From Breznakia blatticola (lineage in GTDB: Bacteria > Bacillota_I > Bacilli_A > Erysipelotrichales > Erysipelotrichaceae), in NCBI RefSeq assembly GCF_004365815.1, contig NZ_SODD01000046.1:1-19874 (forward strand): a stretch of DNA of 19,874 bases. Reading direction: 5' to 3'. The translations under genes and the position numbers were made by a program. How positions within the stretch are numbered: position 1 is the first letter of the stretch; every line of letters begins with the position of its first letter. This document shows positions 3,318 to 19,621 of the stretch, piece after piece. The notes under the pieces were generated by a model. The model had not been told where the DNA came from and searched no databases. It saw nothing but the letters and a program-made list of their open reading frames with translations.

Positions 3318-3348
3318 ACACAAAAAAAGAAGATGTGTTTACACCTTC
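3318..3348 (-). terminator. Probable terminator after the ABC permease gene.
   Basis: Minus strand reads GAAGGTGTaaACACatCTTC followed by TTTTTTTGTGTTTTC. The stem is imperfect. Confidence 0.5.
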
Positions 3349-3358
3349 CTTAATCTGG

Positions 3359-5383: not shown

Positions 5384-6140
5384 TAGAGATGTCACCTCCT
5401 AATAAGGTAACAACTTCAATGATTTGATCAAAAAACTGTTTACGACTTTGATTTCCTTTGTAGATTTCATTGAAGATCTTCCCATCTTTAATAAATAATA
5501 TACGATCACAGAAACTTGCAGTAAACGTATCATGTGTAACTAGTAAGATGGTACTGTTATACTCTTTATTTAACTTTTCTAATGATTCAAGTAACATTCG
5601 ACTTGATTTACTATCTAATGCTCCTGTTGGTTCATCTGCTAAAATCAAACTTGGATTATGAACCAAAGCACGTGCAGCAGCAACTCTTTGGCGTTGTCCT
5701 CCTGACATTTGATATGGATATTTTGGAAGTACTTCTTCAATATCTAATTTCTTTGCAACTTCTTTTACTTGTGCATCAATCTTCTTTGGATTTACCTTTT
5801 GAATCGTCAATGCTAGTGCAATATTTTCAAATGCTGTTAGTGTATCAAGTAAGTTAAAGTCTTGGAAAATAAATCCCAATTGTTCGCGACGAAATTTACT
5901 TAGCTTTTGTTTTTTCAATTCTGTAATATTTGTATCATCAATTACAATATTTCCACTTGTTACTTTATCAATAGTAGACACACAGTTTAATAAGGTTGTC
6001 TTTCCAGATCCACTTGGACCCATGATTCCAACGAATTCACCTTCGTTTATATCAAAGGTAATTCCGTCAATTGCCTTTGTTAAGTTATCCTTATTCCCAT
6101 AATATTTCTCAATATTTTGAACATTTAATACTTGTTTCAT
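5373..6140 (-). CDS. ABC transporter ATP-binding protein (BceA/MacB-like), 255 aa.
   Basis: Walker A GPSGSGKTT, signature MSGGQRQR, Walker B LILADEPT. An AGGAGGAG SD precedes the ATG. Confidence 0.95.
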   Translation of the reverse strand: MKQVLNVQNIEKYYGNKDNLTKAIDGITFDINEGEFVGIMGPSGSGKTTLLNCVSTIDKVTSGNIVIDDTNITELKKQKLSKFRREQLGFIFQDFNLLDTLTAFENIALALTIQKVNPKKIDAQVKEVAKKLDIEEVLPKYPYQMSGGQRQRVAAARALVHNPSLILADEPTGALDSKSSRMLLESLEKLNKEYNSTILLVTHDTFTASFCDRILFIKDGKIFNEIYKGNQSRKQFFDQIIEVVTLLGGDISNVL

Positions 6141-6184
6141 TATGTTCTCCTCCTGTATGTAACTATCATAAACTTTCTATCTTT

Positions 6185-6229
6185 AGTATACACGCGAACT
6201 ATCTTACACTTTCCTTACATTTTTGTAAG
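6185..6229 (-). promoter_or_regulatory. Bce-type response-regulator box plus -10 element upstream of the ABC transporter genes.
   Basis: The minus strand reads CTTACAaaaaTGTAAG (6214..6229), a third half-site TGTAAG (6203..6208), and then TATACT (6185..6190). The inverted repeat fits the TNACA-N4-TGTAA type of site that I recall being reported for BceR-like regulators. Confidence 0.6.
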
Positions 6230-6254
6230 AAAGAAAAAAGGTGCGATAGCACCT
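6227..6254 (-). terminator. Rho-independent terminator after the small DUF6440-like gene.
   Basis: Stem AGGTGC-tatc-GCACCT, followed on the minus strand by TTTTTTCTTTC. Confidence 0.75.
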
Positions 6255-6457
6255 CACTGATGAGAATCAATTTCTCCCATCATATATTTTGTAATAACGA
6301 CATTCCCATGACTATCTAAGAGTGGTGTTAATCCACTTCCTTCAGGAGTATTGACCAATAAATAATTGACCCCCGTAATTTGATCTTCAAGAATACGGAT
6401 ACCTTGAAGTGTTGTTTCTTCGTGGACAATAACAAATCGTTCCTTATCTGTACGCAT
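6254..6457 (-). CDS. Small conserved hypothetical protein (DUF6440-like by recollection), 67 aa.
   Basis: MRTDKERFVIVHEETTLQGIRILEDQITGVNYLLV...GLTPLLDSHGN. The ATG at 6457 is preceded by an AGGAGGA SD. The longer track ORF overlaps the upstream gene and is rejected. Confidence 0.7.
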   Translation of the reverse strand: MRTDKERFVIVHEETTLQGIRILEDQITGVNYLLVNTPEGSGLTPLLDSHGNVVITKYMMGEIDSHQ

Positions 6458-6465
6458 GATTCCTC

Positions 6466-6654
6466 CTAGTGAAATAAAATAAAGTAGATAACATAGACCC
6501 AACCAAGCAAACCGTGAACGATTGCCCAACCAATACTATGCCATGTTGTATAGCTTATCACCATTGCTAGTGCACTACCAAAGGACAATCCTTGTTTGAT
6601 CGTCTTATTCACAATTGTTGTTTTGCCATCTGCACGGCGTTCATATTCTGACAT
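6466..6654 (-). CDS. Small hydrophobic membrane protein of unknown function, 62 aa.
   Basis: One or two predicted TM segments (FGSALAMVISY..., IGWAIVHGLLGWVYVIYFILF). An AGAGGAGAAG SD is present. The gene is tightly packed between the HK stop and the next gene's SD. Confidence 0.6.
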   Translation of the reverse strand: MSEYERRADGKTTIVNKTIKQGLSFGSALAMVISYTTWHSIGWAIVHGLLGWVYVIYFILFH

Positions 6655-6665
6655 AGCTTCTCCTC

Positions 6666-7679
6666 TTACAATAAGTTTTTATAAAATCGACTATTGGGAA
6701 TTGTTATACTCACACAAGTACCTTTATGTACTGTACTATCTAGTCGTATAGACATATAAAGCTTGTCACATAACGCTTTACATAAATACAATCCCATACC
6801 TGTTGCTTTCTTTTCCAATCGTCCATTTTCACCAGTAAATCCACGATCAAATACTCGAGAAACATCTTTTGGATCAATTCCTATTCCTGTATCTGAAATA
6901 CGCACTTCAAGATCTTGATCATGTACTACAGTATCAATATGGATAGATCCACCAACATCTGTATACTTTAATGCATTATCTAATATCTGATGCAAAATGA
7001 ATTCTAACCATTTACTATCCATCGTGATCATGTGATCACTATTCGTAATTGATAATTTAATTTCTTTATAAATGAATCGCTGCTTTAAACGACGTACAGC
7101 TGCATTGATACTATCACTAAGCTGGATTTCTTTTAATACATAATCGCGTGAAGGATCACTACTTTTTGCATAATATAAAGCTTGCTCAATATAATCATTC
7201 ATCCGCTCGATTTCCAAGTCCAAAGCTTTACTTATTCCACTTGGATGATTGGTATTCATCAATTTCGCAGCGGTCAATGGACTTTTTATCTCATGAATCC
7301 ACATTTCGATATATTCTTTATAATCTTTTTCACGTTTCTCATATGTTGCAATTCGATCATTGTAGTTTTTATTAATTTCTTCTAAGGTTTGATATAGAAT
7401 TCTACCTTCTTGAAATTCTGGTTCATCAATAACTTCGATTAATAAACTTTTTTGATCCAGTCGTTCCAACTGGTCTTTAAGTTGTTTATAGTACCCATTT
7501 TTTTGTCGATACTCAATAAATAAAAAGCCAAAGATAAATGACCATATACTAACAAGAAAAAGTATAACGGTATCTATGCTTAGTTTAGAAGCAAGTAAAA
7601 AGAATCCTTGCAACGCACTTAACAATGCACCTAAAACTAAAATATAAAAATGCTCTTTTAGATATGTATACTTACTCAT
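6666..7679 (-). CDS. Intramembrane-sensing histidine kinase (BceS-like), 337 aa.
   Basis: Two N-terminal TM helices are separated by a very short loop. An H-box (IHEIKSPLTAA) and HATPase_c motifs (DNALKYT, DTGIGI, GTGMGL) are present. There is an 8-nt overlap with the RR gene. Confidence 0.92.
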   Translation of the reverse strand: MSKYTYLKEHFYILVLGALLSALQGFFLLASKLSIDTVILFLVSIWSFIFGFLFIEYRQKNGYYKQLKDQLERLDQKSLLIEVIDEPEFQEGRILYQTLEEINKNYNDRIATYEKREKDYKEYIEMWIHEIKSPLTAAKLMNTNHPSGISKALDLEIERMNDYIEQALYYAKSSDPSRDYVLKEIQLSDSINAAVRRLKQRFIYKEIKLSITNSDHMITMDSKWLEFILHQILDNALKYTDVGGSIHIDTVVHDQDLEVRISDTGIGIDPKDVSRVFDRGFTGENGRLEKKATGMGLYLCKALCDKLYMSIRLDSTVHKGTCVSITIPNSRFYKNLL

Positions 7680-8343
7680 TAATTAAATACCCCATACCAC
7701 GTTTTGTTTCAATAAAGTTTTCCAAATCAATATATGCAAGTTTCTTGCGTAGACGATTCATGTTTACCGTTAAGGCATTATCATCCACAAACATATCACT
7801 ATCCCACATCTCCGACATCAACTCTTCACGTAAAACAATACGATTTTTATGTTTGAATAATGTCGTCATAATGCGCAGTTCATTTTTTGTGAGTTCAATA
7901 CTTTGTTTATTGTAAGTAAGTGTACTTTTTGCGACGTCCAGTTGGACACCCGCAACAAATAATTTACTACCATTATCCCCTTCATAGCTACGATTTAATA
8001 ATCGTTCCATGCGTGCAAGTAAAATTTGTAAGTTATATGGTTTTGAGACAAAATCATCTGCGCCCATATGCATACTCATCAACTCATCTAAATCTGTATT
8101 ACGACTGGTAACAATGATCATTGGTACATTGCTTTGCTTACGTACTTCTTTGGCAATATGATTCCCATCAATACCCGGCAAGTTCAAATCAAGCAAAATC
8201 AAGTGTACATCACTATCAAGAATTTGCTTGCTCACATCACAAAAATCCACAACGGTTTGGACATCATATCCATTGGTTTGTAGAAACGTTGCAAGTTCAT
8301 CACGAATATTAATTTCATCTTCAACAATTAAGATTTTATACAT
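7672..8343 (-). CDS. OmpR-family response regulator (BceR-like), 223 aa.
   Basis: A receiver domain (MYKILIVEDE..., LILLDLNLPGIDG) is followed by a winged-helix C-terminus (TKNELRIM...ETKRGMGY). I chose the start at MYKILIV (ATG at 8343). No SD is visible. Confidence 0.88.
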   Translation of the reverse strand: MYKILIVEDEINIRDELATFLQTNGYDVQTVVDFCDVSKQILDSDVHLILLDLNLPGIDGNHIAKEVRKQSNVPMIIVTSRNTDLDELMSMHMGADDFVSKPYNLQILLARMERLLNRSYEGDNGSKLFVAGVQLDVAKSTLTYNKQSIELTKNELRIMTTLFKHKNRIVLREELMSEMWDSDMFVDDNALTVNMNRLRKKLAYIDLENFIETKRGMGYLINE

Positions 8344-8370
8344 ATTTTTATTATACATGAATTTTGTGGT

Positions 8371-8399
8371 AAAGCGACAAAAACGAGCATTCGCTCGTT
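8371..8399 (-). terminator. Rho-independent terminator after tethered sigma gene 1.
   Basis: Stem AACGAGC-gaat-GCTCGTT (8382..8399), followed on the minus strand by TTTGTCGCTTT. Confidence 0.65.
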
Positions 8400-8402
8400 C
8401 TC

Positions 8403-9716
8403 TCATGATTCATCATGTAATGTAATCTCTAACTCATTTCCTGCATAATCAGAAATATAAAGTACACCTGTTACTCCATATGGACAAGTTAGAATCATTT
8501 GATTCAATGATGGATGTATCGTTATTTCTTTGTTGATACGTACTCCATTTTCATAATAGCGAATACTTTCAAAGTTAACTTGTGATGCATCATCAGAAAC
8601 ATAAATTGTATACGTTGTTCCATCAATTTCATACCCTTGAACTACCGGACTATGCATATCAAATGTAGAAATACTCACGATTCGCTCATCAATTTGTTTG
8701 CCATCCTTCATTAGAGTTACACTATAACTTCCATTACTTGCGATGACTAGACTCTCTTGATTATTCACAAGAATTTGATCATACTCCATATTGGATGTAG
8801 TTACAGTTAGTGTAATTGGCTGATTTGTCCAATTTGTTGGATGCTGAATATCTGTAATACTTGCGAGTTCTTGTACAACAGGTTGTACATCTTGTATTTC
8901 AGGTGCTACTGCTGGCTGTTTTTCTTCTTGATTTAACATGATTGCACCTACAACACCACTTACTCCAATCGTGGAAGCAAGTGCAATTTTTGCCCCTACA
9001 CCAATTCCTACTTTACTTCCTGCTGCTGCACTTCCTACACCTATTGCACTTGTTTGTAATGCGAGATTGATCACTGGAGCATGAATATTCTTTGCTGCTG
9101 AAGCATATGCAACTTGAATTAGCATTGGTGAAATTGCAAATCCCGGTAATGATTTTGCACTAATCCCCTGTTTTTCCAACATTACTTTTAGTTTACTACG
9201 AAGATGATTCAATCGTGAATATACCGTACCTTCAGGTATTTGTAAAATGTATGCAATCTCACTTACTTGAAGTTCATCATAGTATCGCAAGAGTGCAACA
9301 TTTCGTAATGACGCATTTAAAGAATGAATGCAATTATATACGATTGCTTGCATCTCTTTATTCTCTATGATTTCTTTTGCTGTTTGTTGATTTACATCTT
9401 CGAAATCTTCCACGCGAACATCATCTCCTAAATCCAGTAGTTTCTTTTTCTTACGCTCATAATCATGGCAAATATTCATTGTAATACGTTTCATCCAAGT
9501 ATAGAATGCTTCAGGACTCTCCAATGTATCAATCTTGTTGTAAATACGGATAAATACATCTTGAACAACATCTTTTGCTGTATGTTCATTATGAAAATAA
9601 TCCCATGCTGTAAAATATACATTGTTTGCATATATCTCGTACAATTTCTGAAATGCCTCTTGATCGTTTTGCTTAACTCGATTCACTAACTCTACTACTT
9701 CTCTTTTCTCTTTCAT
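8403..9716 (-). CDS. Membrane-tethered ECF-type sigma-70 family protein (sigma region 2 + region 4, TM segment, ~175-aa extracytoplasmic domain), 437 aa.
   Basis: Region 2 reads DVVQDVFIRIYNKI...FYTWMKRITMNICHDY. The region 4 HTH reads LLRYYDELQVSEIAYILQIPEGTVYSRLNHLRSKLK. A Gly/Ala-rich TM segment lies at about 8934..9002, followed by a beta-rich C-terminal domain. The ATG at 9716 follows GAGGGGTG. Confidence 0.85.
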   Translation of the reverse strand: MKEKREVVELVNRVKQNDQEAFQKLYEIYANNVYFTAWDYFHNEHTAKDVVQDVFIRIYNKIDTLESPEAFYTWMKRITMNICHDYERKKKKLLDLGDDVRVEDFEDVNQQTAKEIIENKEMQAIVYNCIHSLNASLRNVALLRYYDELQVSEIAYILQIPEGTVYSRLNHLRSKLKVMLEKQGISAKSLPGFAISPMLIQVAYASAAKNIHAPVINLALQTSAIGVGSAAAGSKVGIGVGAKIALASTIGVSGVVGAIMLNQEEKQPAVAPEIQDVQPVVQELASITDIQHPTNWTNQPITLTVTTSNMEYDQILVNNQESLVIASNGSYSVTLMKDGKQIDERIVSISTFDMHSPVVQGYEIDGTTYTIYVSDDASQVNFESIRYYENGVRINKEITIHPSLNQMILTCPYGVTGVLYISDYAGNELEITLHDES

Positions 9717-9810
9717 CGAACACCCCTCACACAAACTACCAGTTCTAAATCTTTTTCTTTCATACAATTATGTCGCTACCCAAATGGATGAAAGAATTAT
9801 GTAGTATTTG

Positions 9811-9839
9811 ACACAAAACGAGGCAAATGGTTATGCCTC
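9811..9839 (-). terminator. Weak terminator-like hairpin between the LRR gene and sigma gene 1.
   Basis: Stem GAGGCA-taaccatt-TGCCTC followed by GTTTTGTGT on the minus strand. The stem is short, so read-through is plausible. Confidence 0.4.
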
Positions 9840-9860
9840 ATTTTGCGCTGCCCATAATAT

Positions 9861-11267
9861 TTAGTTTTCTTTCTTTTTCTTAATTGCGATTGCACCAATG
9901 GCAACACCACTAATCAATAAAGTGTATAGAAGTGTATTTGTTGTATATACATCACCAGTTGCAACACTTGGTTTACTTGATAATCCTTTCGATGGATCAT
10001 TTACTGGTTCAGTTGGTGTCGGTTTAACTGGATCCACTGGTTTTACTGGATCAATTGGATCTATTGGATCAACTGGGTCCACTGGATCGATTGGATCGAC
10101 AGGGTCAACAATCGGTGGTTGTTTTATACTAACCTTGGATACGATAAACATATACTCTTCTCTTTTTGCATCATCACCAACTACATACCCATCTGGAGAA
10201 AATAGTCTTTGTGGGCGAACTTTAATTTCATCAACTCTGTAGTAATAGTTTAGTGCTTCTAGTTCAGCGGCACGTAAAATAAAACTATGTTTATCTAGTA
10301 CTTCCCAATTACAATCTTCGTGTAATTCAACTTTATTCATATTAATACCATCAATAGTTACTACATACCCATCATCTGTTTCGTCAGCAATTAAATCAAT
10401 TACATTCGACTTTATCGCAAAATCTGCTTTTGTACTTCTATCATAGAATCTGTACTGTACGGGATCACCACCAATTTCCAAAAATGGAAATTGATTTCCA
10501 CCTAATATAACTGATAAATAATCATAATTTGAATCTGCCAGAAAATACGGATTACTAAAAAGAGTATTAAGAATTCCAACCGTATGAACATCAGATAAAT
10601 CGAAATATTCATCTGTGATTGGAACACTTTCAATATCTATAGAACCAGTCACCTTAACTGCACCGTTAATACTCGTAAGTTTTGGTAATGAAGATAATGA
10701 AAATACATCAATTTCACTTTCTTCATGTAGTATCAACGATGAAAGACTATCCATCGCCCATAAATTTAATTCTCCTATTTCACGCATATGTGAAACATCA
10801 ACACTTGTAACATTAGGAACTACAGACAATGTTAAATAATACATGAAATCTAGTGCATCTAAATTTACTGTCTTAAGATCATCTGTTTCATATACTTCTA
10901 AGGCATTTAGTTTGCTTCCTTCAGGTATTACTAAATTTGAACCTTTAAAATGCCCTAAAGTAAGAGATTTTGTCTCCAGTAATTCAATTCCTTTGAAATC
11001 ACGAATATCATATTCATCGCAATCAATATCTAGATCTTTAAATGGATTATTGGTTGCAAGTTCTTCCTTTGTGATGATACCATCACTTGCAATTTCTTTA
11101 CTTTCTACATAACTTCTAAAATTTGCATCAGGAAAATTTTCCTTTGTAACATGCACATCACTATCTACAACATTCATAGGTTGTAATGTTTCCAAATGTT
11201 GTACATTTGGTTGCATGATTCCTAGTGATAATGAAATCATGGCTACTGTTTTCAATACTAAATTCAT
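9861..11267 (-). CDS. Cell-wall-anchored leucine-rich-repeat surface protein with a Pro-x-Asp stalk, 468 aa.
   Basis: It has a signal peptide (MNLVLKTVAMISLSLG...), LRR-like ~22-aa periodicity in the region L..L.L....L..VD.S, and a PVDPIDPVDPVDPIDPIDPVKPVDPVKP stalk. The C-terminus carries SVATGD, a hydrophobic segment and KKKKEN. An AGGAGGAG SD precedes the ATG at 11267. Confidence 0.85.
   Translation of the reverse strand: MNLVLKTVAMISLSLGIMQPNVQHLETLQPMNVVDSDVHVTKENFPDANFRSYVESKEIASDGIITKEELATNNPFKDLDIDCDEYDIRDFKGIELLETKSLTLGHFKGSNLVIPEGSKLNALEVYETDDLKTVNLDALDFMYYLTLSVVPNVTSVDVSHMREIGELNLWAMDSLSSLILHEESEIDVFSLSSLPKLTSINGAVKVTGSIDIESVPITDEYFDLSDVHTVGILNTLFSNPYFLADSNYDYLSVILGGNQFPFLEIGGDPVQYRFYDRSTKADFAIKSNVIDLIADETDDGYVVTIDGINMNKVELHEDCNWEVLDKHSFILRAAELEALNYYYRVDEIKVRPQRLFSPDGYVVGDDAKREEYMFIVSKVSIKQPPIVDPVDPIDPVDPVDPIDPIDPVKPVDPVKPTPTEPVNDPSKGLSSKPSVATGDVYTTNTLLYTLLISGVAIGAIAIKKKKEN
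10021..10110. repeat. Ten tandem 9-bp units (GGATCNAYT-like) encoding the P-x-D stalk.
   Basis: Units read directly from the sequence: ggtttaact ggatccact ggttttact ggatcaatt ggatctatt ggatcaact gggtccact ggatcgatt ggatcgaca gggtcaaca. Confidence 0.85.
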
Positions 11268-11464
11268 TCCTTCTCCTCCTGTTAATATTTTATTAACCAC
11301 ACAACAATCCTTAACACTTTCTTGCACACGGATAGCAACGAGATCGATTATTCATATTAAGGATCCAAGAATATTCAGTTGAATATTTCTTTCAATACAT
11401 AGACGTAGCACATTTCGCTAACCATCAAACTTTTTTTACTTTTTATCAGCTCCTTACTTTTGCA

Positions 11465-11497
11465 TATAAAAAAACAGCTCGCACAATTTTGAACTGT
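11465..11497 (-). terminator. Terminator-like hairpin inside the sigma2-LRR intergenic region.
   Basis: Minus strand reads ACAGTTC-aaaattgtgc-GAGCTGT (one G-U pair), followed by TTTTTTTAT. Confidence 0.55.
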
Positions 11498-11717
11498 TTG
11501 TAAGGTTAAGCTATATTTGTCTAATTATACCGATATGACAAAAACTGTAATTTGGATAGACTAAAAAAATCCCTATTACATTACTTTCCATTATTGGCAC
11601 ATATACACATAGAGTACACACATACTCTACTTTCATAGTAAACAAGAAAATGAAAACTGTAAAGAAAAAGGATAGATATCTTTATTGTGATATTTTATGT
11701 ATGTTATAGATAATCCA

Positions 11718-11860
11718 GCAAAAAGAAAACAGCCTTTGCGTTCAGGGTAGCAAAAGACTGTTCTCCAACTTCGTTTATGTGTGATGGAAGTTTTGAAGGT
11801 ATGATTTTCCCTCTTGTATCACCCTTCACTTATTAGACGCTTTTTATAACGTATATCTTC
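11718..11860 (-). ncRNA. Copy A of a ~140-nt repeated two-hairpin element (candidate sRNA or 3'-UTR element), ending in an intrinsic terminator.
   Basis: It is colinear with copies B and C: GAAGAT...GTCTA.TAAG.GAAGGGT...CCTT..ACTTC[CA-rich loop]GAAGT, then a second hairpin CAGTCTTTTGC/GCAAAGGCTG (11731..11760) and TTTTCTTTTTG. It starts 16 nt after the sigma-2 stop codon. Confidence 0.45.
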
Positions 11861-11876
11861 AAAAAAGTTTGTTTTT

Positions 11877-13208
11877 TTATCCATTACCATCCCGGAGTAC
11901 CAATTTTAGCTCGTTTCCAGCATGATCATAGATGTAGACAATCTCTCTACTTCCGTATGCGCAATCAAGCGAAATGGTATTTGTTGATGGATCAAAACGA
12001 ATGTCTTTTTGAATATACTTCCCGTCTTTCTCACATACCGTTTGTGAGAAATCAATTCCGGATAGTGCATCAGCTAATGTAATCGTATATGATGTTTGGC
12101 TAATTGTATAATCAGGTACTGTTGGACTTGCAAAATCAAAGTTTTCAATACTTACTCTTTGCTCATCAATTTGTTTTCCTTCATACATCAAAGTGACTAC
12201 ATATTCACCATTATCTACAACTGTTAAATCTTGATTTCCATTAAGTAGTATTTCATCATATACATCACTTGTCGTTGTTACTTGCAAAGTGTATGCCGTA
12301 TTCGTCCAAGCCGTTGGATATGTAATATCTTTTATTTTTGCATGTTCTTTTACTGCAGTTGCTGGTTGTTGAACAATTGGATCTGGGTGATTATCTTCTA
12401 ATGGCGCACTTTGTGGTTGATTAAAAAAGTATAATCCTACTAAACTTGCTACACCAACAGTGGAAACGAGTGCTACCTTAGTTGATGCCATCCACCCAGA
12501 TTTCGTACTTGCCGTTGTTAATGCTTCTTTACTTACTCCAATAAGCGCAGCAGAAGACATAGTTACAGGAACTGAAATATGATTTGCACCAGCTTCAAAA
12601 GCAAGTTTCAATAACGTCGGAGTTAATACAAAACCTGACAAACTACGAGAAGATATCCCTTGTTCTTCAAGTACTTCTTTTAACTTTGCCTTCATACTAT
12701 GTAATCTAGAATGTACAGTTCCTTCAGGAATTTGTAATACATCAGAAATCTCAGAAACCGATAGTTCATCATAATATCGAAGAATTCCAACCGTACGAAG
12801 TGGTGTACGTAACGATTGTATCCCTTCATATATGGTTTGTTGAAGTTCTTTATTTTCTAAAATTGCGCTAGCATCTTTTTGATTGAAGTCCTCAAAGTCT
12901 TCTATTGTATATTCACTTCCCAAATCTACTACCTGGTCTTTCTTTTTATCATAGTCATAACATACATTATAGGTAATTCGAATAATCCAAGTATAAAATG
13001 CACCTGGATTATCTAATTTATGAATGTTTTTATGTATTCGAATAAACACATCTTGAACAACATCACGTGCAGTCACTTCATCATGAAAATAGTTTAGCGC
13101 TTTGAAATACACATTATTTACATACGCTCGATATAGTTCTTCAAATGCTTCTTGGTTTCCTTCTTTTACCTTCACTATCAGGTCTTTTAATTTCTCTTTA
13201 TCTTTCAT
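11877..13208 (-). CDS. Membrane-tethered ECF-type sigma-70 family protein, paralog of 8403..9716, 443 aa.
   Basis: The architecture and block-wise sequence conservation match those of 8403..9716 (DVVQDVFIRIH..., LRYYDELSVSEISDVLQIPEGTVHSRL). The TM segment lies at about 12423..12491 and the C-terminal domain is homologous. I chose the ATG at 13208, ~9 nt after AAGGAA. Confidence 0.85.
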   Translation of the reverse strand: MKDKEKLKDLIVKVKEGNQEAFEELYRAYVNNVYFKALNYFHDEVTARDVVQDVFIRIHKNIHKLDNPGAFYTWIIRITYNVCYDYDKKKDQVVDLGSEYTIEDFEDFNQKDASAILENKELQQTIYEGIQSLRTPLRTVGILRYYDELSVSEISDVLQIPEGTVHSRLHSMKAKLKEVLEEQGISSRSLSGFVLTPTLLKLAFEAGANHISVPVTMSSAALIGVSKEALTTASTKSGWMASTKVALVSTVGVASLVGLYFFNQPQSAPLEDNHPDPIVQQPATAVKEHAKIKDITYPTAWTNTAYTLQVTTTSDVYDEILLNGNQDLTVVDNGEYVVTLMYEGKQIDEQRVSIENFDFASPTVPDYTISQTSYTITLADALSGIDFSQTVCEKDGKYIQKDIRFDPSTNTISLDCAYGSREIVYIYDHAGNELKLVLRDGNG

Positions 13209-13394
13209 TTCACACATTTCCTTGATTTATTTTATTTATAACGGCATAGCGCCACTTCACTAATTATTGCTACCCTTCAAATCGAATATCATGTATCGAA
13301 TAATAGAAATTTTGTCCCCCTTAGTCTTTGATATAGCTTTAGCTTTCAATGTTGGTAAGGAGGACATTTCATTTATGTTAAGAAATATTTATGT

Positions 13395-16300
13395 TTATTT
13401 CTTTTGTAGTTTCTTGCGTGCAAATAATAAGCAAATAACAAACCCGCTCATCATTACACAAGCAAGTAATGCATTAGCTGCACTTACATCACCTGTTTTC
13501 ACACTTGGAATCACATCTAATTCCTTCACTGGAGATGTTGATGGTAATTCTGTAAATGGATCTTCAGGTTTTTCTGGTGTTGGTGGAGTTTCTTTTGGAT
13601 CTTCCACTTTCTTCGTATTATATGCTTTTACAACAATCACACCAGTTGTATCTTTTGTAACTTCAAATTCTACATTGGTTGCATCTAATACATATCCTTC
13701 AGGTGCTCCTACTTCTTTAAAGTAGTATGAACCTTCTGGTAAGTCTTTTACTTCAATGCGTCCATCTGCATTTGTTGTATATACCTCATCATTTACTTTT
13801 GTTGCATTTCCTTTTTCATCTACAACGTATAGATCAAATTCAGCACCCTCTAATGTAATCGCTTCATTACTATCTGTATCATACTTAATTAACTCTACAT
13901 CTGCAACATTTGGTGGAGTTTTCGTATTGTATGCTTTTACGATGACTTTCGTATTTGTGTTTTCATCAATTTCAAACATCACTTTTGCATCATCTAAGTC
14001 ATATCCATTTGGTGCTTTTACTTCTTTAAAGTAATATGAACCTTCAAGTAGATCTTCAACTGTGATTTTTCCATCTTTATCTGTAACATATGGAGTTGTG
14101 TTTACTTTCGTATCACCATTAGTAGCATCCACGACATATAAATCAAATTCTGCTCCTTCTAATGTTACTGATTCATTTGTATCTGCGTCATATTTAATCA
14201 GTTGAACATCTTCTGTATGTGGTGGGATTTTTTTATTATATGCTTTCACTTGCATCGTTGCTTTATCATCTTTGCTGATTGTAAATGGAATATGTTTGTC
14301 ATCTAGCTCATATCCTGAAGGAGCTTTTACTTCTTTAAAGTAATATGAACCTTCAAGTAAATCATTTACTTCGATTTCACCATACATATTTGTTGTGTAT
14401 GGTGTGCTATTCATTTTTGTATCACCATTATTATCCACTAGATATAAATCAAACTCAGCACCTTCAAGCGTAGTTGTTTCATTGCTGTCTAGATCATATT
14501 TTGTTAATTCTACACCACCAGTATATATTTTTTGGTTATACACAGTTGTATACACAACCTTTTGTGCATTTGCTTGTTCGATAACTTCAAATACAATCGG
14601 TTCATTAGACTCTACACCATTGTGTTGATAAACCGCACCGCTCATTTCATAATTTGGTGCTGCTTTTACTTCCTTCCAATAGTAGTAACCATCTTCAAGT
14701 CCACTAACAGTAATCATTCCCCAACTATTTGTAGCTCTCTTTGCAACGAGTGTATCACTACTACTTGGTGTTGTTCCATTTGCTACTTTATATAATTCGA
14801 ATTCTGCATTTGCGATAGTCAGTTGATTCTCTTCATCTTTAGTTGCTAAATCGTATTTATACAGTCCAGCACTTCCTTTTGCACCACCAATAATGGTTCC
14901 ACTATATTCGCTAAACGAAAGTTTAATCTCATTTGATTGCTCACTATTGTTGTTCCAGTATAAGTGTGCTTGATTCGTATATTCTGCACCTTCTGCCATT
15001 CCCTCAGGAAATCTTGCTTTAAAGTTTACACGGTATGCAGGAATTACATAATCAACAGCTGCTAACTCTTTATCTAAATACTCAGCTTGTTTATCTGTAT
15101 AGTAACGGTATTTTACGTCTACACCATTTTCCTCTTTTTCATACGTTAATGTCTTTAAATATGCCAAGAATTTACTATCACCGTTTGTTGGTTCTTGCGC
15201 CTTTACTGCTGGTAAATCTGTGAACTTAGCACCAACATATGATTTACTCGTTGGATCTTTATCTCCTAAATCACCAAAATAAACTATCATTGTTGTTTTA
15301 TCTAAACCGTTTGTATCTTTTTCACGATATAAAACAAGCGATTGACGATCCACATTCTCTAAAAATGCTGCCTTAAATTCATCATAGCTTAGACCAGTTG
15401 CAAATGAATAGTTATCATTTAACTTTAATGTCTCTGTACTGTCTTTATGATATTCGACTTTATCAAAGATACCTCTGGTATCTGCTCCATTTGTTTTATC
15501 TTCTGTATATAAAGCATACCATGCATATTGGCGATCTGAATATGCTCCTATTCCACCATTGTCAATATTTCGTTCTTCATAATCCAATTCATTTCCATCT
15601 TTATCTGTAGTCGCAAATACACGCATAATATGTTGAATTGAAATGGAATCAATTGTTTGGTTATAAGTCAATTCATCTTCCATGTACATTTTTGCACGTG
15701 CATTTGTAATTTTTCCAGACTCATCTTTTCTTCCATTGTATAAAGATATATTGTAATCTACACCTAAGTTAATCGTCCAACTTGTATACCCTTCTTTCTC
15801 ATAGAAGACACCTTCTTTTGAGATTTTTGTAGAATTATCATATGGATTTGCCCCAGTATCTTCAACTGGTTGTTTTTCTGGTGTTTGAATGTTACCTCCA
15901 TCAAGAATCGCATTACCATTGATTACAAGTCCTGAATCTAAACCATTTCCAATAATTTTACCTTCTGCACTTACTGATCCACCTTTAACTACATATGGAC
16001 TATTTGGATCTTCTCCAGCAGGAAGTTCTAAAATTGTAATTGCAATTGTTGTTGTTCCCGTTTTGTCATCTGTTTTAATGGTAAATTCTGCAATTTTATT
16101 ATTCGATCCATCATATAATGGAAATGATTTATCTGCAGTATCAAATACAAGTCCAAACCCTTGACCTGGTACTTTCGAATTATTAATTTCTTCAATTACA
16201 AATTTAAATGTATCGCCTTCTTTAAGCAAATTATCACCATCTGTAACATTTGTATATAAAGCTTCCCAAGCAATATTTAGTCTAACTTGACTATAGTTTT

Positions 16301-16517
16301 TTACTTGATAATTACCTTCTAGGTCAACCAAATCTTTGATATCCACAAAATTTAGTCCATTTGTTACTTCCACAGTTACCGTTGGTGCTTTAATCTTGTG
16401 ATATGCATTACCGTAATCTACATCACCTTCTGCTGCTAGTGCTGTTCCACCACTAGCAAATATCATGTTAATCATCATAAAAGCCGCTAATAAAACACTA
16501 AAAAATTTCTTCTTCAT
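13395..16517 (-). CDS. Large cell-wall-anchored adhesin: signal peptide, ~510-aa N-terminal adhesin region, four SpaA/Cna-B-like (prealbumin-fold) repeats and a sorting signal, 1040 aa.
   Basis: The signal peptide ends ...GTALA|AEG. The repeats carry LEGAEFDLY.VD...G.I.V.DL.EGSYYFKEVKAP.GY. The C-terminus carries PSVKTGD, a hydrophobic segment and RKKLQKK. An AAGGAGA SD is present. Confidence 0.9.
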   Translation of the reverse strand: MKKKFFSVLLAAFMMINMIFASGGTALAAEGDVDYGNAYHKIKAPTVTVEVTNGLNFVDIKDLVDLEGNYQVKNYSQVRLNIAWEALYTNVTDGDNLLKEGDTFKFVIEEINNSKVPGQGFGLVFDTADKSFPLYDGSNNKIAEFTIKTDDKTGTTTIAITILELPAGEDPNSPYVVKGGSVSAEGKIIGNGLDSGLVINGNAILDGGNIQTPEKQPVEDTGANPYDNSTKISKEGVFYEKEGYTSWTINLGVDYNISLYNGRKDESGKITNARAKMYMEDELTYNQTIDSISIQHIMRVFATTDKDGNELDYEERNIDNGGIGAYSDRQYAWYALYTEDKTNGADTRGIFDKVEYHKDSTETLKLNDNYSFATGLSYDEFKAAFLENVDRQSLVLYREKDTNGLDKTTMIVYFGDLGDKDPTSKSYVGAKFTDLPAVKAQEPTNGDSKFLAYLKTLTYEKEENGVDVKYRYYTDKQAEYLDKELAAVDYVIPAYRVNFKARFPEGMAEGAEYTNQAHLYWNNNSEQSNEIKLSFSEYSGTIIGGAKGSAGLYKYDLATKDEENQLTIANAEFELYKVANGTTPSSSDTLVAKRATNSWGMITVSGLEDGYYYWKEVKAAPNYEMSGAVYQHNGVESNEPIVFEVIEQANAQKVVYTTVYNQKIYTGGVELTKYDLDSNETTTLEGAEFDLYLVDNNGDTKMNSTPYTTNMYGEIEVNDLLEGSYYFKEVKAPSGYELDDKHIPFTISKDDKATMQVKAYNKKIPPHTEDVQLIKYDADTNESVTLEGAEFDLYVVDATNGDTKVNTTPYVTDKDGKITVEDLLEGSYYFKEVKAPNGYDLDDAKVMFEIDENTNTKVIVKAYNTKTPPNVADVELIKYDTDSNEAITLEGAEFDLYVVDEKGNATKVNDEVYTTNADGRIEVKDLPEGSYYFKEVGAPEGYVLDATNVEFEVTKDTTGVIVVKAYNTKKVEDPKETPPTPEKPEDPFTELPSTSPVKELDVIPSVKTGDVSAANALLACVMMSGFVICLLFARKKLQKK
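13614..14876. repeat. Intragenic tandem repeats encoding the SpaA/Cna-B-like domains. Three units have a 309-bp period and a fourth is more divergent.
   Basis: The marker string acttctttaa recurs at 13711, 14020 and 14329, which gives exact 309-bp spacing. The antisense shadow ORFs on the plus strand repeat the same peptide (YP.GA.TSLK). Confidence 0.85.
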
Positions 16518-16671
16518 AACTTGTCTCCTTATCTTTCACACATACAATTCACACACTGACCAAGTTTGTAATTCACTGCCTACTTTGCTTACACATTCAA
16601 AGTGCAACGAGAGTTCCATATCCTAGAAATCTATCTTTGAAGTCATCTACACAAACAGTTATCTATCAAAA

Positions 16672-16717
16672 CACTAAAAAAGAGTGTCTATGCTATGTTG
16701 AACAACAAGACACTCTT
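16672..16717 (-). terminator. Strong rho-independent terminator ~155 nt upstream of the large adhesin start codon.
   Basis: Perfect 10-bp stem AAGAGTGTCT/AGACACTCTT (16680..16689 and 16708..16717), followed on the minus strand by TTTTTAGTGTTTTG. Confidence 0.8.
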
Positions 16718-16834
16718 AAAAAATGTTGCCATTTTTCACCTAGAGAGTTTCCTTACCCACACATAACACACTGATATTTACACACTTTAACTCAATTTTG
16801 TATATCTTTCCCACTCCACACAAGTTCAAGTATT

Positions 16835-16976
16835 GAAAAGCAACCTTTAATTTTGAAGATTGCTTTCAGACTTCAAATTAAATGTGTGTATGGAAGTCCT
16901 GAAGTTCAACTCTTTATTTTCTTTTTTCTATGAGTATCGCTTCATTTATATAGACTTCAATTTTTCTAAAATCTTC
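16835..16976 (-). ncRNA. Copy B of the ~140-nt repeated two-hairpin element. It has its own upstream promoter, and its second hairpin lacks a U-tract.
   Basis: GAAGATTTT...GTCTAtaTAAatGAAgcgaTACTCA...GACTTC[catacacacatttaattt]GAAGTC, followed by GAAAGCAA/TTGCTTTTC. It is colinear with A and C. Confidence 0.45.
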
Positions 16977-16981
16977 GGAAA

Positions 16982-17010
16982 TTTATAATTTTTTTTCATT
17001 TTTTATTCAA
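16982..17010 (-). promoter_or_regulatory. Candidate sigma-A promoter (TTGAAT-N17-TATAAA) driving element B.
   Basis: On the minus strand, TTGAAT is at 17005..17010 and TATAAA at 16982..16987, with a 17-nt spacer. The predicted TSS falls at the GAAGAT where the A/B/C homology begins. Confidence 0.5.
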
Positions 17011-17061
17011 ATTTAATACCATTACTATTTGATTGATAGTTTTGATTGTTGTAAGGTGTAT

Positions 17062-17097
17062 TTCAATCAAAACAAAAGAACAATTTCTCGTTCTTTT
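17062..17097 (-). terminator. Rho-independent terminator downstream of the Cna-type adhesin gene.
   Basis: Stem AAAAGAAC-gagaaatt-GTTCTTTT followed by GTTTTGATTG on the minus strand. Confidence 0.7.
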
Positions 17098-17107
17098 TAA
17101 AATATAT

Positions 17108-17151
17108 AATCGTATCTTATTATCATATTTAACAGTATATAAGATACGATT
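17108..17151. other. Perfect 13-bp inverted repeat with an 18-nt loop, function unknown.
   Basis: aatcgtatcttat (17108..17120) pairs with ataagatacgatt (17139..17151). It lies ~100 nt after the Cna gene stop codon. Confidence 0.7.
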
Positions 17152-17253
17152 GTTATTGTCCACTAAGTTACATTATATAACAATTAGTTATAACTAAATA
17201 AACATATTGTTAATAACCTATAGTTTTAAACGTGAGAGTAACACTCATGTTTC

Positions 17254-19506
17254 TTATACTTTGCGTCTTCTACGAATTGCTACTAGTATACATAGAGATA
17301 TCCCACTAACAATCATCATTGCATATAGTATCGCTTTTGGACTTTGATCACCAGTACTCACTTTGCTTGAGGATACCACTGATGGATTAATAAGCAATTC
17401 CTTCTCTGGTTTCTTTGAAGGATTTGCTGGTGTCACAATTTCGGGTTGTTTAATCACTGGTGTTTCTACTACTGGTGGTTGTTCTATCATTGGATCTTCT
17501 GGTACAACAACTTCCTTCTTGTACGTATTAATAATCGTAAAATCCGTTTCTGTATTTTTTATTACTTTGGATGTATAGTTATTTGCTACTTCAAGTTCCA
17601 CAACTGTATAGGTTACCGATTTCCCATTAACTAACAACGGTAAATCATTCCATGTATATGTCCAATGATCTTGTTTTGTCACTATTGCATCAAATGTCGC
17701 AATTGCTACATGTTCATCTGTAGACTGAATCAGTTGAACCTTGATTTCATCAGGACGAATATCTAAATCATCATTCTCCCATTCTTTACTTACTGAAATG
17801 GATGTAAGTGGAAGTTTATATGTATTGGTAATTGTATAGTCATTTTTTGCATGTTCCTCAACACTTGCTGTGTAATTTTCTGCTACATGAATTTCATTTA
17901 CCGAATATGTAACTTCTTTATTTCCTTGAAAAGCAGGTAAATCATCCCATTGATATTCCCACACATTGTTGAGATCTTTTTCTATTTTTACGGTGTCCAC
18001 AATTGATGTATTTCCATCAACTGATTTTTGTAATTGCACTTCAACAAATGATGGACGTACCCACTGATCATCATCACCAGCCCACTTCTTAGTTACATGT
18101 ACACTGGTTCTTGGTACTTGATACGTATTTACAATCGTGAAATTATTAAATGAATTTTCAATTACTGTCTCAGTATAGTTATTTGGTACACTTGCTTCAT
18201 GTACTGAATATGTTACATATGTAGTACCTTCCAGCATTGGTAAATTGGTGAACTCATATTGCCATTGATTTTTTGCATTCAAATCAATTTGACCAATTTG
18301 CACTGGGCTTCCACCTTTTAGTGTTTTGTATAAATTCACAGTTACAGTTTCTGGATGTGTAATTTCTGGATCATCACTTTCCCATACTTTATGAACTTTC
18401 ACGCTAGTTGATGCATCACCAGAACCAACTCCACCAGTTACAAGACGTTGATCATATGCTTCGATTGTCCCAGATTCATAGTTATCTCCTTCAATCGTAG
18501 CTTTATTTAAATAGATTTGTGAAACTTTATTGTCTAAGATGCGTGTAGAATACTTAATATATAAAGATTTTCCATCCGCTTTCGCTTCTTGTTTTGTTGC
18601 TTCATCATTTGGGGTAAATACTCCACCGTTTTCTGGTAATGCTGTGGATGCACCACTAACAAGATTACCCAAATGTACTGTAAATCCATCACTTTGAAGT
18701 ACAAATCGCTCTGGATTTGTATTTGATGTATAGTATCCAAAATACTTCCAAGATGATGCTCCTTTATCATTCCAATCAATACGTGCGACTTGCACTGTGA
18801 TTGCTGGCTTTGTTGGATCATCTACTACAAGTTCATGTTTTCCAATAATTTCATCAATGACACTCGCATTGTAAATATCCTCAGCAGCAACATTTACACG
18901 AATCGTCCAATCGATAGTATTGGTTGTCGTATTCGCTGTTCCCCACTTTGTGATTTTTTCATCACGTGGTTCATAATTTGCTTTACCTACCCAAACATCT
19001 TGACTACTTGTATCACTGAATTGAAGTACAAGATCTTCAGCACCTGCTACTTCATTGCGATCCCATGATGCAACAACAAAAAAGTATCCTTTACGATTCT
19101 GCTTATTCTTAAAATAATCATTGAATGTAATGGTAATACTCTTATCTGATGCATTCATACTTGCATTTGCAACTACAATTTCCGTTTCATTATTTTCTGC
19201 GTCAATTTCTTTAAGCTCAAATTCAAGATTTTTCACACTTAATTGCGAAGGTAGTTGAATAACTACAGTATCTCCACTATTTACTTCATAAGTATCATCA
19301 AATGCATATTCATAATACACACGCATCGAATCATAGTATCCATAGTATTGACTATCTTCACCTGTATACGTTGTTACTTTTCCACTTACGATAAAATCGT
19401 TTTGTGAAATGCTACCTTGTGCTTCTGTAGCTAGTATTTTTCCCGTGTACGAGAACATTCCTGCAAGCACAAAAAAAACTACCACAATTTTACTTATTTT
19501 CCTCAT
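17254..19506 (-). CDS. Cna-type collagen-adhesin-like surface protein: signal peptide, collagen-binding-type A region, three Cna-B repeats, Pro-rich stalk and a sorting signal, 750 aa.
   Basis: The A region has SGDTVVIQLPSQL and IDWTIRVNV. The Cna-B repeats read V.K.W..DD...RP..V.V.L......W.Y.W.DLP......V.Y.V.E..V...Y. The C-terminus carries KVSTGD, a hydrophobic segment and RRRRKV. An AAGGAGGAA SD is present. Confidence 0.92.
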   Translation of the reverse strand: MRKISKIVVVFFVLAGMFSYTGKILATEAQGSISQNDFIVSGKVTTYTGEDSQYYGYYDSMRVYYEYAFDDTYEVNSGDTVVIQLPSQLSVKNLEFELKEIDAENNETEIVVANASMNASDKSITITFNDYFKNKQNRKGYFFVVASWDRNEVAGAEDLVLQFSDTSSQDVWVGKANYEPRDEKITKWGTANTTTNTIDWTIRVNVAAEDIYNASVIDEIIGKHELVVDDPTKPAITVQVARIDWNDKGASSWKYFGYYTSNTNPERFVLQSDGFTVHLGNLVSGASTALPENGGVFTPNDEATKQEAKADGKSLYIKYSTRILDNKVSQIYLNKATIEGDNYESGTIEAYDQRLVTGGVGSGDASTSVKVHKVWESDDPEITHPETVTVNLYKTLKGGSPVQIGQIDLNAKNQWQYEFTNLPMLEGTTYVTYSVHEASVPNNYTETVIENSFNNFTIVNTYQVPRTSVHVTKKWAGDDDQWVRPSFVEVQLQKSVDGNTSIVDTVKIEKDLNNVWEYQWDDLPAFQGNKEVTYSVNEIHVAENYTASVEEHAKNDYTITNTYKLPLTSISVSKEWENDDLDIRPDEIKVQLIQSTDEHVAIATFDAIVTKQDHWTYTWNDLPLLVNGKSVTYTVVELEVANNYTSKVIKNTETDFTIINTYKKEVVVPEDPMIEQPPVVETPVIKQPEIVTPANPSKKPEKELLINPSVVSSSKVSTGDQSPKAILYAMMIVSGISLCILVAIRRRRKV
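17518..18411. repeat. Three tandem Cna-B domain-encoding repeats (~97-100 codons each).
   Basis: Protein repeats at aa 366-463, 467-563 and 568-663, counted by hand from the start at 19506. Confidence 0.75.
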
Positions 19507-19603: not shown

Positions 19604-19621
19604 TGTAATAATATTTTTCTT

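Follow-up and report, generated by a model that had tools for sequence, protein, structure and literature searches.

The window analyzed here is a 19,874-nucleotide (nt) stretch of Breznakia blatticola DNA (contig NZ_SODD01000046.1, positions 1 to 19,874). It encodes two paralogous proteins, sigA and sigB, in which an extracytoplasmic function (ECF) sigma factor, one hydrophobic segment and a tandem of immunoglobulin (Ig)-like domains are joined in a single chain. This architecture is kept throughout a family of homologues with a common hydropathy and charge pattern, no separate anti-sigma gene lies beside either copy, and both genes are linked to genes for surface proteins. From these data we infer membrane insertion, autoinhibition, proteolytic release, a regulon and a signal: on balance, it is probable that the sigma factor is held inactive at the membrane, is freed by intramembrane proteolysis and then drives the adjacent adhesin genes. 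The fusion of sensor, tether and sigma factor, which a first-pass annotation of this DNA had proposed, was upheld by domain scans, by hydropathy and charge in 85 homologues, by structure prediction and by gene context.

Two ECF sigma factors with long C-terminal extensions

The window has a G+C content of 33%, and all its major genes are on the minus strand. This is also the location of sigA (8403..9716, 437 aa) and sigB (11877..13208, 443 aa), whose orientation had not been given before; both coordinates include the stop codon, and all genes and protein features described below lie on the same strand. The ATG starts at 9716 (sigA) and 13208 (sigB) are each preceded by a ribosome-binding site (RBS), and the deduced N termini agree with those of database homologues. 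The two proteins are 48% identical end to end, and each has a close relative in Breznakia (98% identity of sigA to the Breznakia sp. protein P0005 and 96% identity of sigB to Breznakia P0001). Both have the same layout, which consists of Sigma70_r2 and Sigma70_r4_2, a linker of 55-60 aa, one hydrophobic segment, a short stalk and an all-beta C terminus of about 155 aa.

The sigma assignment was deduced from Pfam and NCBIfam scans. Matches to Sigma70_r2 (E values of 1e-12 and 1e-14 in the two proteins) and to Sigma70_r4_2 (1e-7 and 3e-8) fell within aa 25-177, and no significant Pfam match was found in either protein beyond aa 180. In sigA, region 2 spans aa 25-91 (9444..9644; PF04542, E 1.3e-12); it was modeled by AlphaFold2 (AF2) with a predicted local distance difference test score (pLDDT) of >90 and was matched by Foldseek to sigmaE and SigW. 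The helix-turn-helix (HTH) of region 4 spans aa 125-177 (9186..9344; PF08281, E 1.4e-7). The content of PF04542 plus PF08281/PF04545 in both proteins, with no Pfam match to region 3 or region 1, is that of ECF (group 4) sigma factors, and the TIGR02937 model of the sigma70-ECF superfamily scored 95-96 bits against a cutoff of 42.9. The complete sigma factor with regions 2 and 4 that had been read from both open reading frames (ORFs) was thereby recovered by independent models.

Both proteins scored far below every specific NCBIfam cutoff for the named ECF equivalogs (SigW, SigM, SigV, SigY, RpoE and others), the best scores being 110.8 bits against a cutoff of 209 for SigW (PRK09641) and 116 against 188.5 for TIGR02954. 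By structure, the sigma part resembles sigmaE, SigW and AlgU (Foldseek, 30-32% identity, E 1e-7 to 1e-9). Positions that contact RNA polymerase (RNAP) or DNA, namely D49, Q52, W74, E153 and I154, are at least 90% conserved across the 85 members aligned; T164, V165 and R168 of region 4 in sigA are invariant or nearly so in a 22-member alignment; and the region 2.2 motif D-[IV]-[VL]-Q-[DE]-x-F and the region 4.2 HTH motif G-T-V-x-S-R-L are kept in the nearer relatives. By domain content, the N termini of sigA and sigB are genuine ECF sigma factors that fit no named equivalog. The text of the 2021 ECF reclassification by Casas-Pastor describes 19 groups with C-terminal extensions, and its main text assigns a TM-containing extension only to ECF263, with 5-7 transmembrane (TM) helices, unlike sigA and sigB (PMC7826278). 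Some members of the present family may sit in one of the groups of the supplement to that classification.

Hydrophobic segment and membrane topology

A single hydrophobic peak is present in each protein, with a 19-residue Kyte-Doolittle (KD) mean of 1.8 in both. The predicted TM segment of sigA covers aa 244-261 (8934..8987; IALASTIGVSGVVGAIML; KD peak 1.79), and that of sigB, with which it aligns, covers aa 245-262 (12423..12476; VALVSTVGVASLVGLYFF; KD peak 1.77). Both lie within the intervals 8934..9002 and 12423..12491 that the first-pass annotation had marked as hydrophobic. The topology of the family was surveyed in a full-length alignment of 85 members (A3), taking the top 19-residue KD window of each sequence and a threshold of 1.6. 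In all 85 members the strongest window fell at one and the same alignment position; its KD had a median of 1.93 and was 1.6 or more in 76 of them. The mean net charge of the 12 flanking residues was +1.9 on the N-terminal side and -0.6 on the C-terminal side. Judged from sequence, this charge bias and hydropathy fit a single-pass protein with the N terminus inside and the C terminus outside (N-in/C-out).

The TM segment is rich in Gly, Ser, Thr and Ala, which are small or helix-destabilizing residues. Conserved landmarks are K243 immediately before the segment (64/85), G257 within it (the commonest residue at that site, 49/85) and N262 after it (43/85). The features of a substrate for a site-2 protease (RasP/RseP) are thus present in silico, comprising a type II, N-in single-pass TM segment and helix-destabilizing residues.

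The C-terminal Ig-like tandem

In sigA, the TM segment is followed by a disordered stalk (aa 262-283, 8868-8933) rich in Pro, Glu and Gln, and then by the tandem Ig-like domains (aa 284-437, 8406..8867), which AF2 modeled at pLDDT 96-98 as all-beta, in the form of two sandwiches of seven to eight strands. The corresponding region of sigB (aa ~288-442, 11880..12347) was assigned by alignment and by hmmsearch with the C-terminal profile (E 5e-80). Foldseek matched the sigA C terminus to the tandem Ig/FN3 ectodomains of Sidekick, NCAM, neuroplastin and cytokine receptors and to adhesin modules of SraP and SiiE, so that the modeling and structure search suggested at the outset returned tandem Ig/FN3-like sandwiches. 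The beta-rich domain of about 175 aa described earlier was indeed beta-rich; its folded part is nearer 155 aa and consists of two Ig-like domains after a disordered stalk of about 20 aa. All the C-terminal motifs that had been quoted as common to the two copies fall within the 48%-identity alignment. No Pfam family, including the Big/BID families, matched the C-terminal domain at threshold in the seven members scanned, and the NCBIfam scan gave it no identity.

A profile of this domain (155 aa, alignment A1) was searched against 1.84 billion representatives at E <=1e-3, and 385 proteins were found. Among the 150 matches listed, about 80 were of 385-485 aa with the domain at aa ~270-435, as in sigA and sigB, and the others were proteins of 800-4250 aa with up to 29 copies of the module. 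These giant proteins carry BiPBP_C, DUF7743, Big_3_2 and Big_13 elsewhere or overlapping the repeat, and SLH in one case. As its homologous repeats share these giant proteins with SLH and Big domains, the Ig-like ectodomain is deduced to be an extracellular module.

Asn, Asp, Ser, Gly and Pro account for nearly all of the invariant or near-invariant residues of the ectodomain (NG; D..SP; D..S; D.AGN). These residues fall at sigA aa 328-329, 353-357, 375-378 and 423-427 (window ~8436-8735), the D..SP motif being at the junction of domains 1 and 2. The pattern recalls the Ca2+ sites between domains in bacterial adhesin repeats of the Ig-like and cadherin-like types, for example those of SiiE and SraP.

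The linker and the predicted conformation of the sigma domains

Between region 4 and the TM segment, sigA has a cytoplasmic linker (aa 185-243, 8988..9164) with predicted helices at aa 197-209 and 219-226, which is a candidate for a built-in inhibitory element. G184 and P197 are conserved landmarks, and the linker ends in a Gly/Ala/Ser-rich stretch that finishes in the conserved K243. Two AF2 runs were made. The model from an 8-sequence alignment (pLDDT 67) was uninformative for the sigma core, with TMt of about 0.5 to everything, and was replaced by one from the deep alignment of 85 sequences (mean pLDDT 83.8). In the latter, the sigma2 and sigma4 helices had pLDDT >90, while the block means were 77-88 for aa 191-210, which contains the first linker helix, 57-72 for aa 211-230, which contains the second, and <50 for aa 231-272.

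The modeled sigma core superposed on sigma factors in their anti-sigma-bound states, namely CnrH:CnrY (TMt 0.81, root mean square deviation [rmsd] 3.9 A), SigW:RsiW (TMt 0.80-0.82) and EcfG:NepR (TMt 0.75). It did not superpose on the sigma factors of holoenzymes or initiation complexes (TMt 0.33-0.43, rmsd ~26 A). The closed sigma2/sigma4 model, taken together with the confident linker helix, suggests that the linker acts as a built-in, two-helix inhibitory element of class II type.

Conventional anti-sigma elements were sought in the same region. A class I domain of the RseA, RsiW or RslA type, which is a bundle of about 80 aa, was not detected, and the linker is just 55-60 aa long. The HxxxCxxC motif, reported missing by the first-pass annotation, was found in 0/85 members, including sigA and sigB, and zf-HC2 had no match in sigA or sigB (Pfam, E up to 1) or in the linkers (E up to 10). 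The statement that no anti-sigma partner exists is therefore kept at the level of genes and motifs and is qualified in one respect, as the two predicted helices of the linker may themselves be a minimal anti-sigma element built into the chain.

Family size and distribution

A word-indexed search retrieved six full-length relatives, from Breznakia spp. (96-98% identity), Erysipelotrichaceae bacterium MTC7 (57%) and metagenomic sequences. Of ten mid-sized matches sampled from the profile search, nine had sigma region 2 and/or region 4 domains; the tenth (216 aa) and three short ones (163-226 aa) begin in or after the linker and resemble truncated gene calls. The family comprises more than 100 clusters at 50% identity, in Erysipelotrichales, with several paralogues per genome. 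Named members come from Breznakia pachnodae, Breznakia sp. PF5-3 and metagenome-assembled genomes (MAGs) of Coprobacillaceae; the Breznakia genomes have several paralogues each, and Breznakia sp. GCA_029893515.1 carries a near-identical copy of the window. A genome-wide harvest of loci, made with sigma region 2 patterns, returned mostly unrelated ECF sigma factors together with five full-length family loci and one related fusion. No description of a sigma-TM-Ig family was found in the literature searched for Erysipelotrichaceae sigma fusions and membrane-tethered sigma factors.

Two loci carry more than one family gene. In B. pachnodae (locus L014, 2640-8482) two sigma-adhesin pairs stand in tandem, and in locus L005 (10001-13067) two sigma paralogues are adjacent; these arrangements point to expansion by local duplication.

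More distant ECF proteins (366-646 aa), also retrieved by the word-indexed search, differ in their C-terminal regions; P0009, for example, has an LRR_5/BspA domain. In P0007, P0008, P0009, P0011-P0013, P0018 and L020, all Firmicutes ECF proteins at 28-32% identity, the sigma part is followed by a hydrophobic or amphipathic helix and a hydrophobic segment, and then by C-terminal regions that are unrelated (LRR_5/BspA repeats, a small domain on a Thr-rich stalk, an unknown domain of ~300 aa, a helical tail of ~110 aa). The one-polypeptide chassis thus appears to be broader than the Ig-type family.

Linkage to surface-protein genes

A surface-protein gene lies beside each of the 16 family genes examined, including sigA and sigB. 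The neighbouring proteins have a signal peptide in all cases and a C-terminal anchor signal in all but one, which is cut by the end of the locus; for 11 of the 16 genes, the surface-protein gene begins within 70 nt downstream (2-70 nt). In the window, the gene directly upstream of sigB (13395..16517) encodes a SpaA-domain, pilin-like protein (PF17802 in four stretches, E 1e-63; NCBIfam SpaH/EbpB major pilin, 98 bits) that ends in SVKTGD, and the order of SpaA followed by sigma is kept in Erysipelotrichaceae MTC7. Between sigB and sigA lies a gene (9861..11267) for a leucine-rich repeat (LRR)-like surface protein with a signal peptide, an LRR-like region, a Pro-rich stalk and a C-terminal sorting signal of SVATGD, a TM segment and KKKK. 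Its only Pfam indication is a weak hint of LRR, and the gene is kept beside sigA in L007 and L011. Both genes are candidate targets.

Elsewhere, the neighbours are a giant 4661-aa protein with its C terminus cut by the locus end (L001), SpaA (L002, from MTC7), a lectin/MucBP/SHIRT protein (L003), 964-aa and 721-aa proteins on the flanks of two tandem sigma paralogues (L005), a 704-aa protein (L006), a Cna_B protein (L010), the LRR protein (L011), an adhesin-like protein (L012), and proteins of 1810, 363 and 1052 aa (L015, L016 and L017, respectively), while L014 holds two sigma-plus-cargo cassettes in tandem.

Homotypic sensing, in which the neighbouring surface proteins would share the Ig tandem, was rejected at the sequence level. 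In an hmmsearch with the Ig-tandem profile, which covered every ORF of 80 aa or longer from the window and from 12 loci, only the sigma fusions matched and no adjacent surface protein did; the sensor is therefore not a copy of a cargo domain.

The claim that no separate anti-sigma gene is adjacent to either copy was confirmed. The window neighbours scanned are surface proteins and a two-component system, none of them an anti-sigma gene, and the 11328-11876 spacer upstream of the LRR-like gene contains only ORFs of 23-55 aa, none of which is a plausible anti-sigma factor.

Proposed mechanism and alternatives

The proposed mechanism would run as follows. sigA and sigB would be single-pass, N-in/C-out proteins whose cytoplasmic N-terminal ~180 aa form a functional ECF sigma factor. 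At rest, the sigma factor would be kept inactive by the membrane tether and by linker helices clamping sigma2 and sigma4 closed, in the manner of a short class II anti-sigma peptide. A surface signal acting on the Ig tandem would cause the ectodomain to be trimmed or shed (site-1 cleavage), a site-2 protease of the RasP/RseP type would then cleave the TM segment, and the freed sigma factor would bind RNAP and transcribe its own gene and the neighbouring adhesin and pilin genes. The evidence leans towards such regulated intramembrane proteolysis (RIP), given a TM segment rich in Gly, Ala, Ser and Thr with a conserved Gly, a closed state predicted by modeling and, by analogy, the precedent of IutY from Pseudomonas putida. 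In one Breznakia subclade, the motif ATGAAC-N17-CYACWAAT lies 40-70 nt upstream of 4/4 sigma genes (two in L014 and one each in L015 and L016); it is ECF-like and consistent with autoregulation.

Several observations weigh against this proposal. The regions upstream of sigA, sigB and their window neighbours yielded no definable ECF-type promoter, and the ATGAAC-N17-CYACWAAT motif was absent from the window intergenic regions, a GAAC-type motif being present in another subclade only. The surface genes of the window look monocistronic, with terminator-like hairpins after sigB and after the LRR-like gene; for this reason, the argument for co-regulation within the window is one of proximity. Cleavage by a site-2 protease would leave the linker on the sigma factor, so that a further step, either trimming or a conformational change, would be required. 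The closed sigma state may stem from a bias of AF2 training toward closed states, and AF2 rendered the hydrophobic segment as low-confidence coil (pLDDT <50) with no helix. Finally, the linker had no similarity to any anti-sigma family, either as a profile against the PDB or in a scan of 23 linkers against Pfam (E <=10).

The foremost alternative, which the first-pass annotation had put beside RIP, is activity in the tethered state, as in ToxR or CadC, where the full-length protein would recruit RNAP at the membrane and the ectodomain would modulate it by conformation or oligomerization with no proteolysis. The partly low-complexity linker of 55-60 aa is long enough for sigma4 to reach RNAP, the probable targets are adjacent genes that all encode exported proteins, so that transcription could be coupled to co-translational export, and no site-1 protease or cleavage motif was identified. 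However, the predicted closed sigma2/sigma4 state cannot bind core RNAP, and a passive anchor would have no need of a conserved, small-residue TM segment containing Gly. IutY, the sole characterized sigma-TM fusion, is inactive until it is cut by RseP (PMC5411451), and no sigma factor acting from the membrane was found in the literature searched. This alternative was judged unlikely.

The data also accommodate a more specific, distinctly speculative reading, in which each sigma-TM-Ig gene and its adjacent adhesin gene form a self-contained cassette of sensor plus cargo that has been multiplied in Erysipelotrichales as a transcriptional feedback circuit for each adhesin. The Ig tandem would sense whether the cognate surface protein is being exported, anchored or mechanically engaged, or would respond to a host or matrix ligand shared with it, and the signal would feed back on transcription of the cargo. 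With RIP, the Gly/Ala/Ser-rich stretch before the TM segment might serve as a stop signal for the degrading protease; with tethered activity, giant adhesin genes might be transcribed at the membrane where their products are exported.

It is very unlikely that the proteins are wholly cytoplasmic, with a segment that does not cross the membrane and an Ig tandem folded onto the sigma core as a regulatory extension, like those of ECF41 and ECF42. The absence of a helix in the low-confidence AF2 segment would agree with this, as would KD means that exceed the 1.6 threshold just moderately in sigA and sigB, and among the modes of ECF regulation, C-terminal extensions rank second in frequency (PMC7826278). 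Against it stand the co-located hydrophobic peak of the whole 85-member family with its positive-inside flanks, the giant extracellular multi-repeat proteins with SLH and Big that are the other hosts of the domain, and the Pro/Glu/Gln-rich disordered stalk after the segment.

An equally slim chance attaches to a decoy or adaptor function, in which the sigma-like part would bind another regulator at the membrane as does the sigma-like domain of PhyR. Neither a promoter motif nor a target could be defined in the window, and no specific NCBIfam sigma model was reached at cutoff. Nevertheless, regions 2.2 and 4.2 are conserved in the nearer relatives and the five contact positions are kept across the family, unlike in degenerate mimics; neither a receiver domain nor a nearby gene for a NepR-like partner was found; and the ATGAAC-N17-CYACWAAT motif before the sigma genes of one subclade is consistent with autoregulation. 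The chance that a frameshift joined a sigma gene to an ordinary anti-sigma gene, which had been named as a possible refutation, is negligible because the uninterrupted architecture recurs in dozens of divergent homologues, with two independent copies in the window, further copies in independent genomes and metagenomes at 25-98% identity, and no anti-sigma domain in the sequence after sigma4.

Other features of the locus

The gene order on the minus strand is Cna_B, SpaA, sigB, a 550-nt spacer, LRR, sigA, response regulator, histidine kinase, a Bce-like ABC transporter and a P-type ATPase. The first of these genes (17254..19506) encodes a Cna_B/collagen-binding adhesin (PF05738, PF05737 and PF17961) with a KVSTGD sorting signal and belongs to the same surface-protein island. 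All three window surface proteins have signal peptides and C-terminal sorting signals of the form [SK]V[AKS]TGD, TM segment and basic tail, and in other loci the C termini of the complete neighbours have [VI]-x-[TA]-G-D or V-[ND]-T-x-D ahead of a TM segment and a basic (Lys/Arg) tail. The window surface proteins (C termini at 9861-9960, 13395-13500 and 17254-17350) do not have an LPXTG ending. The TGD-type ending resembles the NVQTG-type motif found in the sortase B substrates of Clostridioides difficile, and a lineage-specific sorting signal is suggested. No sortase gene was found in the window.

An OmpR-type response regulator gene (7672-8406) follows sigA and is probably co-transcribed with it, since its start overlaps the sigA stop codon (ATGA). 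It is followed by the gene for a 337-aa histidine kinase (6666-7679). The linkage of sigA to the two-component system is present in Breznakia sp. and is not kept in the contig of a sigA orthologue (L011). After the kinase come two small ORFs, one of them DUF6440, an ABC ATPase and a 678-aa permease of FtsX type, and the whole module (3359-8406, minus strand) is of the BceRS-BceAB-like type that serves in sensing and detoxification of peptide antibiotics.

The spacer at 11328-11876 contains two terminator-like hairpins with U-tracts (~11745-11790 and 11460-11495) and matches to sigma-70-like promoters, of which that at 11551-11524 scores 10/12. It folds more stably than shuffled sequences (z -2.6) and may encode a small RNA or a long leader; an Rfam scan of the window gave no match.

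Shared sequences upstream of the genes were compared. A scan for the sigma-70 consensus found fewer sites (53) than in shuffled sequence (62.7). A block GGGTAGC..ATAATT is common to the upstream regions of sigA and sigB, the extended pattern by itself not being significant. The exact 9-mer TCTCGTTGC occurs only twice in the window, both times on the minus strand, at 11335-11343 (76 nt upstream of the LRR start) and at 16604-16612 (95 nt upstream of the SpaA start). At both sites it is followed 5-9 nt later by GTGT(A/G).AAG, and GGAAC or GAATAA stands some 17-18 nt ahead of the GTGT. The arrangement, which was picked post hoc, is a possible shared promoter or operator.

A motif containing GTGTG (consensus ~ATGTGTGAA, often doubled) is found about 10-60 nt from the start codon, beside the RBS or between the RBS and the ATG. 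It is present at all five genes of the island, sigA, LRR, sigB, SpaA and Cna_B (9732, 11302/11329, 13215, 16541-16556 and 19528-19543, minus strand), and at a VWA-like gene further upstream in L007; it also occurs in L002, L006, L007 and L010. The motif was kept upstream of the SpaA and sigma genes of MTC7 and of a sigma gene in a Coprobacillaceae MAG, and those genes for the ATPase, the ABC transporter and the response regulator that were checked lack it. The motif may be an operator, or a site for translation, that these genes have in common.

Significance

ECF sigma factors are the third major route of transmembrane signalling in bacteria, and their understanding rests almost wholly on two-protein pairs of sigma and anti-sigma factor. 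IutY, the single sigma-TM-sensor fusion that has been dissected, had been called unique. With the present family, the one-polypeptide design proves to be common in a Firmicutes lineage associated with the gut, with a different sensor fold and with a link to the surface adhesin and pilin genes that are determinants of colonization. The view that this arrangement was uncharacterized was correct for the family, its ectodomain, lineage and gene context; since fused sigma-TM-sensor proteins are already established (IutY, ECF48, ECF52 and ECF53), the novelty does not extend to the principle. What is new is the sensor fold, the lineage, the apparent lack of a conventional anti-sigma domain, the expansion of paralogues and the strict pairing with adhesin genes, while the principle of a fused, membrane-anchored ECF sigma factor is already known.

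The family raises the questions of whether a sigma factor is itself a substrate of a site-2 protease in Gram-positive bacteria, whether a two-helix linker is enough for autoinhibition, and what is sensed by an Ig tandem next to the membrane. It would come as no surprise to a specialist, and it is clean, abundant and experimentally tractable. As a compact module free of an anti-sigma factor, it could be of use in synthetic biology as an orthogonal one-gene sensor. There is also a value for annotation, as the genes are now labelled merely "sigma-70 family RNA polymerase sigma factor".

Comparison with known systems

In IutY (P. putida, ECF243; Bastiaansen et al. 2014), Prc and then RseP are needed to release a sigma domain of ~23 kDa, and a form with a truncated periplasmic part is constitutively active yet dependent on RseP (PMC5411451). 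As in sigA and sigB, one chain contains a cytosolic ECF sigma factor, a single TM segment and an extracytoplasmic domain, and a separate gene for an anti-sigma factor is lacking; IutY alone among such fusions has been shown by experiment to be activated by RIP. Unlike sigA and sigB, IutY belongs to Gram-negative cell-surface signalling, with a FecR-type periplasmic domain, the TonB-dependent receptor IutA and an iron-uptake regulon, whereas the present family is from Erysipelotrichales and has a tandem Ig-like ectodomain, adhesin or pilin neighbours and many paralogues per genome. No FecR domain was matched in sigA or sigB by Pfam, and no gene for a TonB-dependent receptor was among the window neighbours.

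The actinobacterial groups ECF52, ECF48 and ECF53 likewise combine an ECF sigma factor with a long C-terminal extension, one or more TM helices and an extracytoplasmic module, and release by proteolysis was proposed for SCO4117 of ECF52 (PMC5826349, PMC8999054). These groups, and not sigA and sigB, have a ZAS zinc finger (pfam13490) between the sigma factor and the TM segment, a long Pro-rich region and a carbohydrate-binding module (PMC5826349, PMC8999054). They are restricted to Actinobacteria, and the present family has instead a linker of 55-60 aa and an Ig-like ectodomain. Though alike in design, sigA and sigB thus belong neither with IutY nor with ECF52, and their family occurs outside both Proteobacteria and Actinobacteria.

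For the linker, the comparison is with class II anti-sigma factors such as CnrY and NepR. These have a cytoplasmic stretch of about 45 residues whose two short helices hold sigma2 and sigma4 clamped shut, and in CnrY the TM segment follows directly. In the AF2 model of sigA, two helices are predicted before the TM segment, and the sigma core can be superposed on that of CnrH bound to CnrY. CnrY and NepR are, in contrast to the sigA linker, separate polypeptides, and no sequence similarity between them and the linker was found.

SigI-RsgI of Clostridium thermocellum and Bacillus subtilis are paralogous pairs of sigma factor and sensor encoded beside genes for extracellular proteins, with an exchangeable binding module and RasP-dependent RIP. 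The likeness to the present family lies in the Firmicutes host and in the multiple paralogues per genome beside extracellular-protein genes. Unlike sigA and sigB, SigI is of a distinct sigma70 subfamily and not an ECF sigma factor, and RsgI is a separate protein with an N-terminal anti-sigma domain and an autoproteolytic juxtamembrane domain, neither of which was detected in sigA or sigB. ToxR, CadC and TcpP resemble sigA and sigB in that one polypeptide links a DNA-binding output in the cytoplasm, through a single TM segment, to an extracytoplasmic sensor; in those regulators the output is a winged helix of OmpR type that is active while tethered, whereas in sigA and sigB it is a sigma subunit, which must join RNAP.

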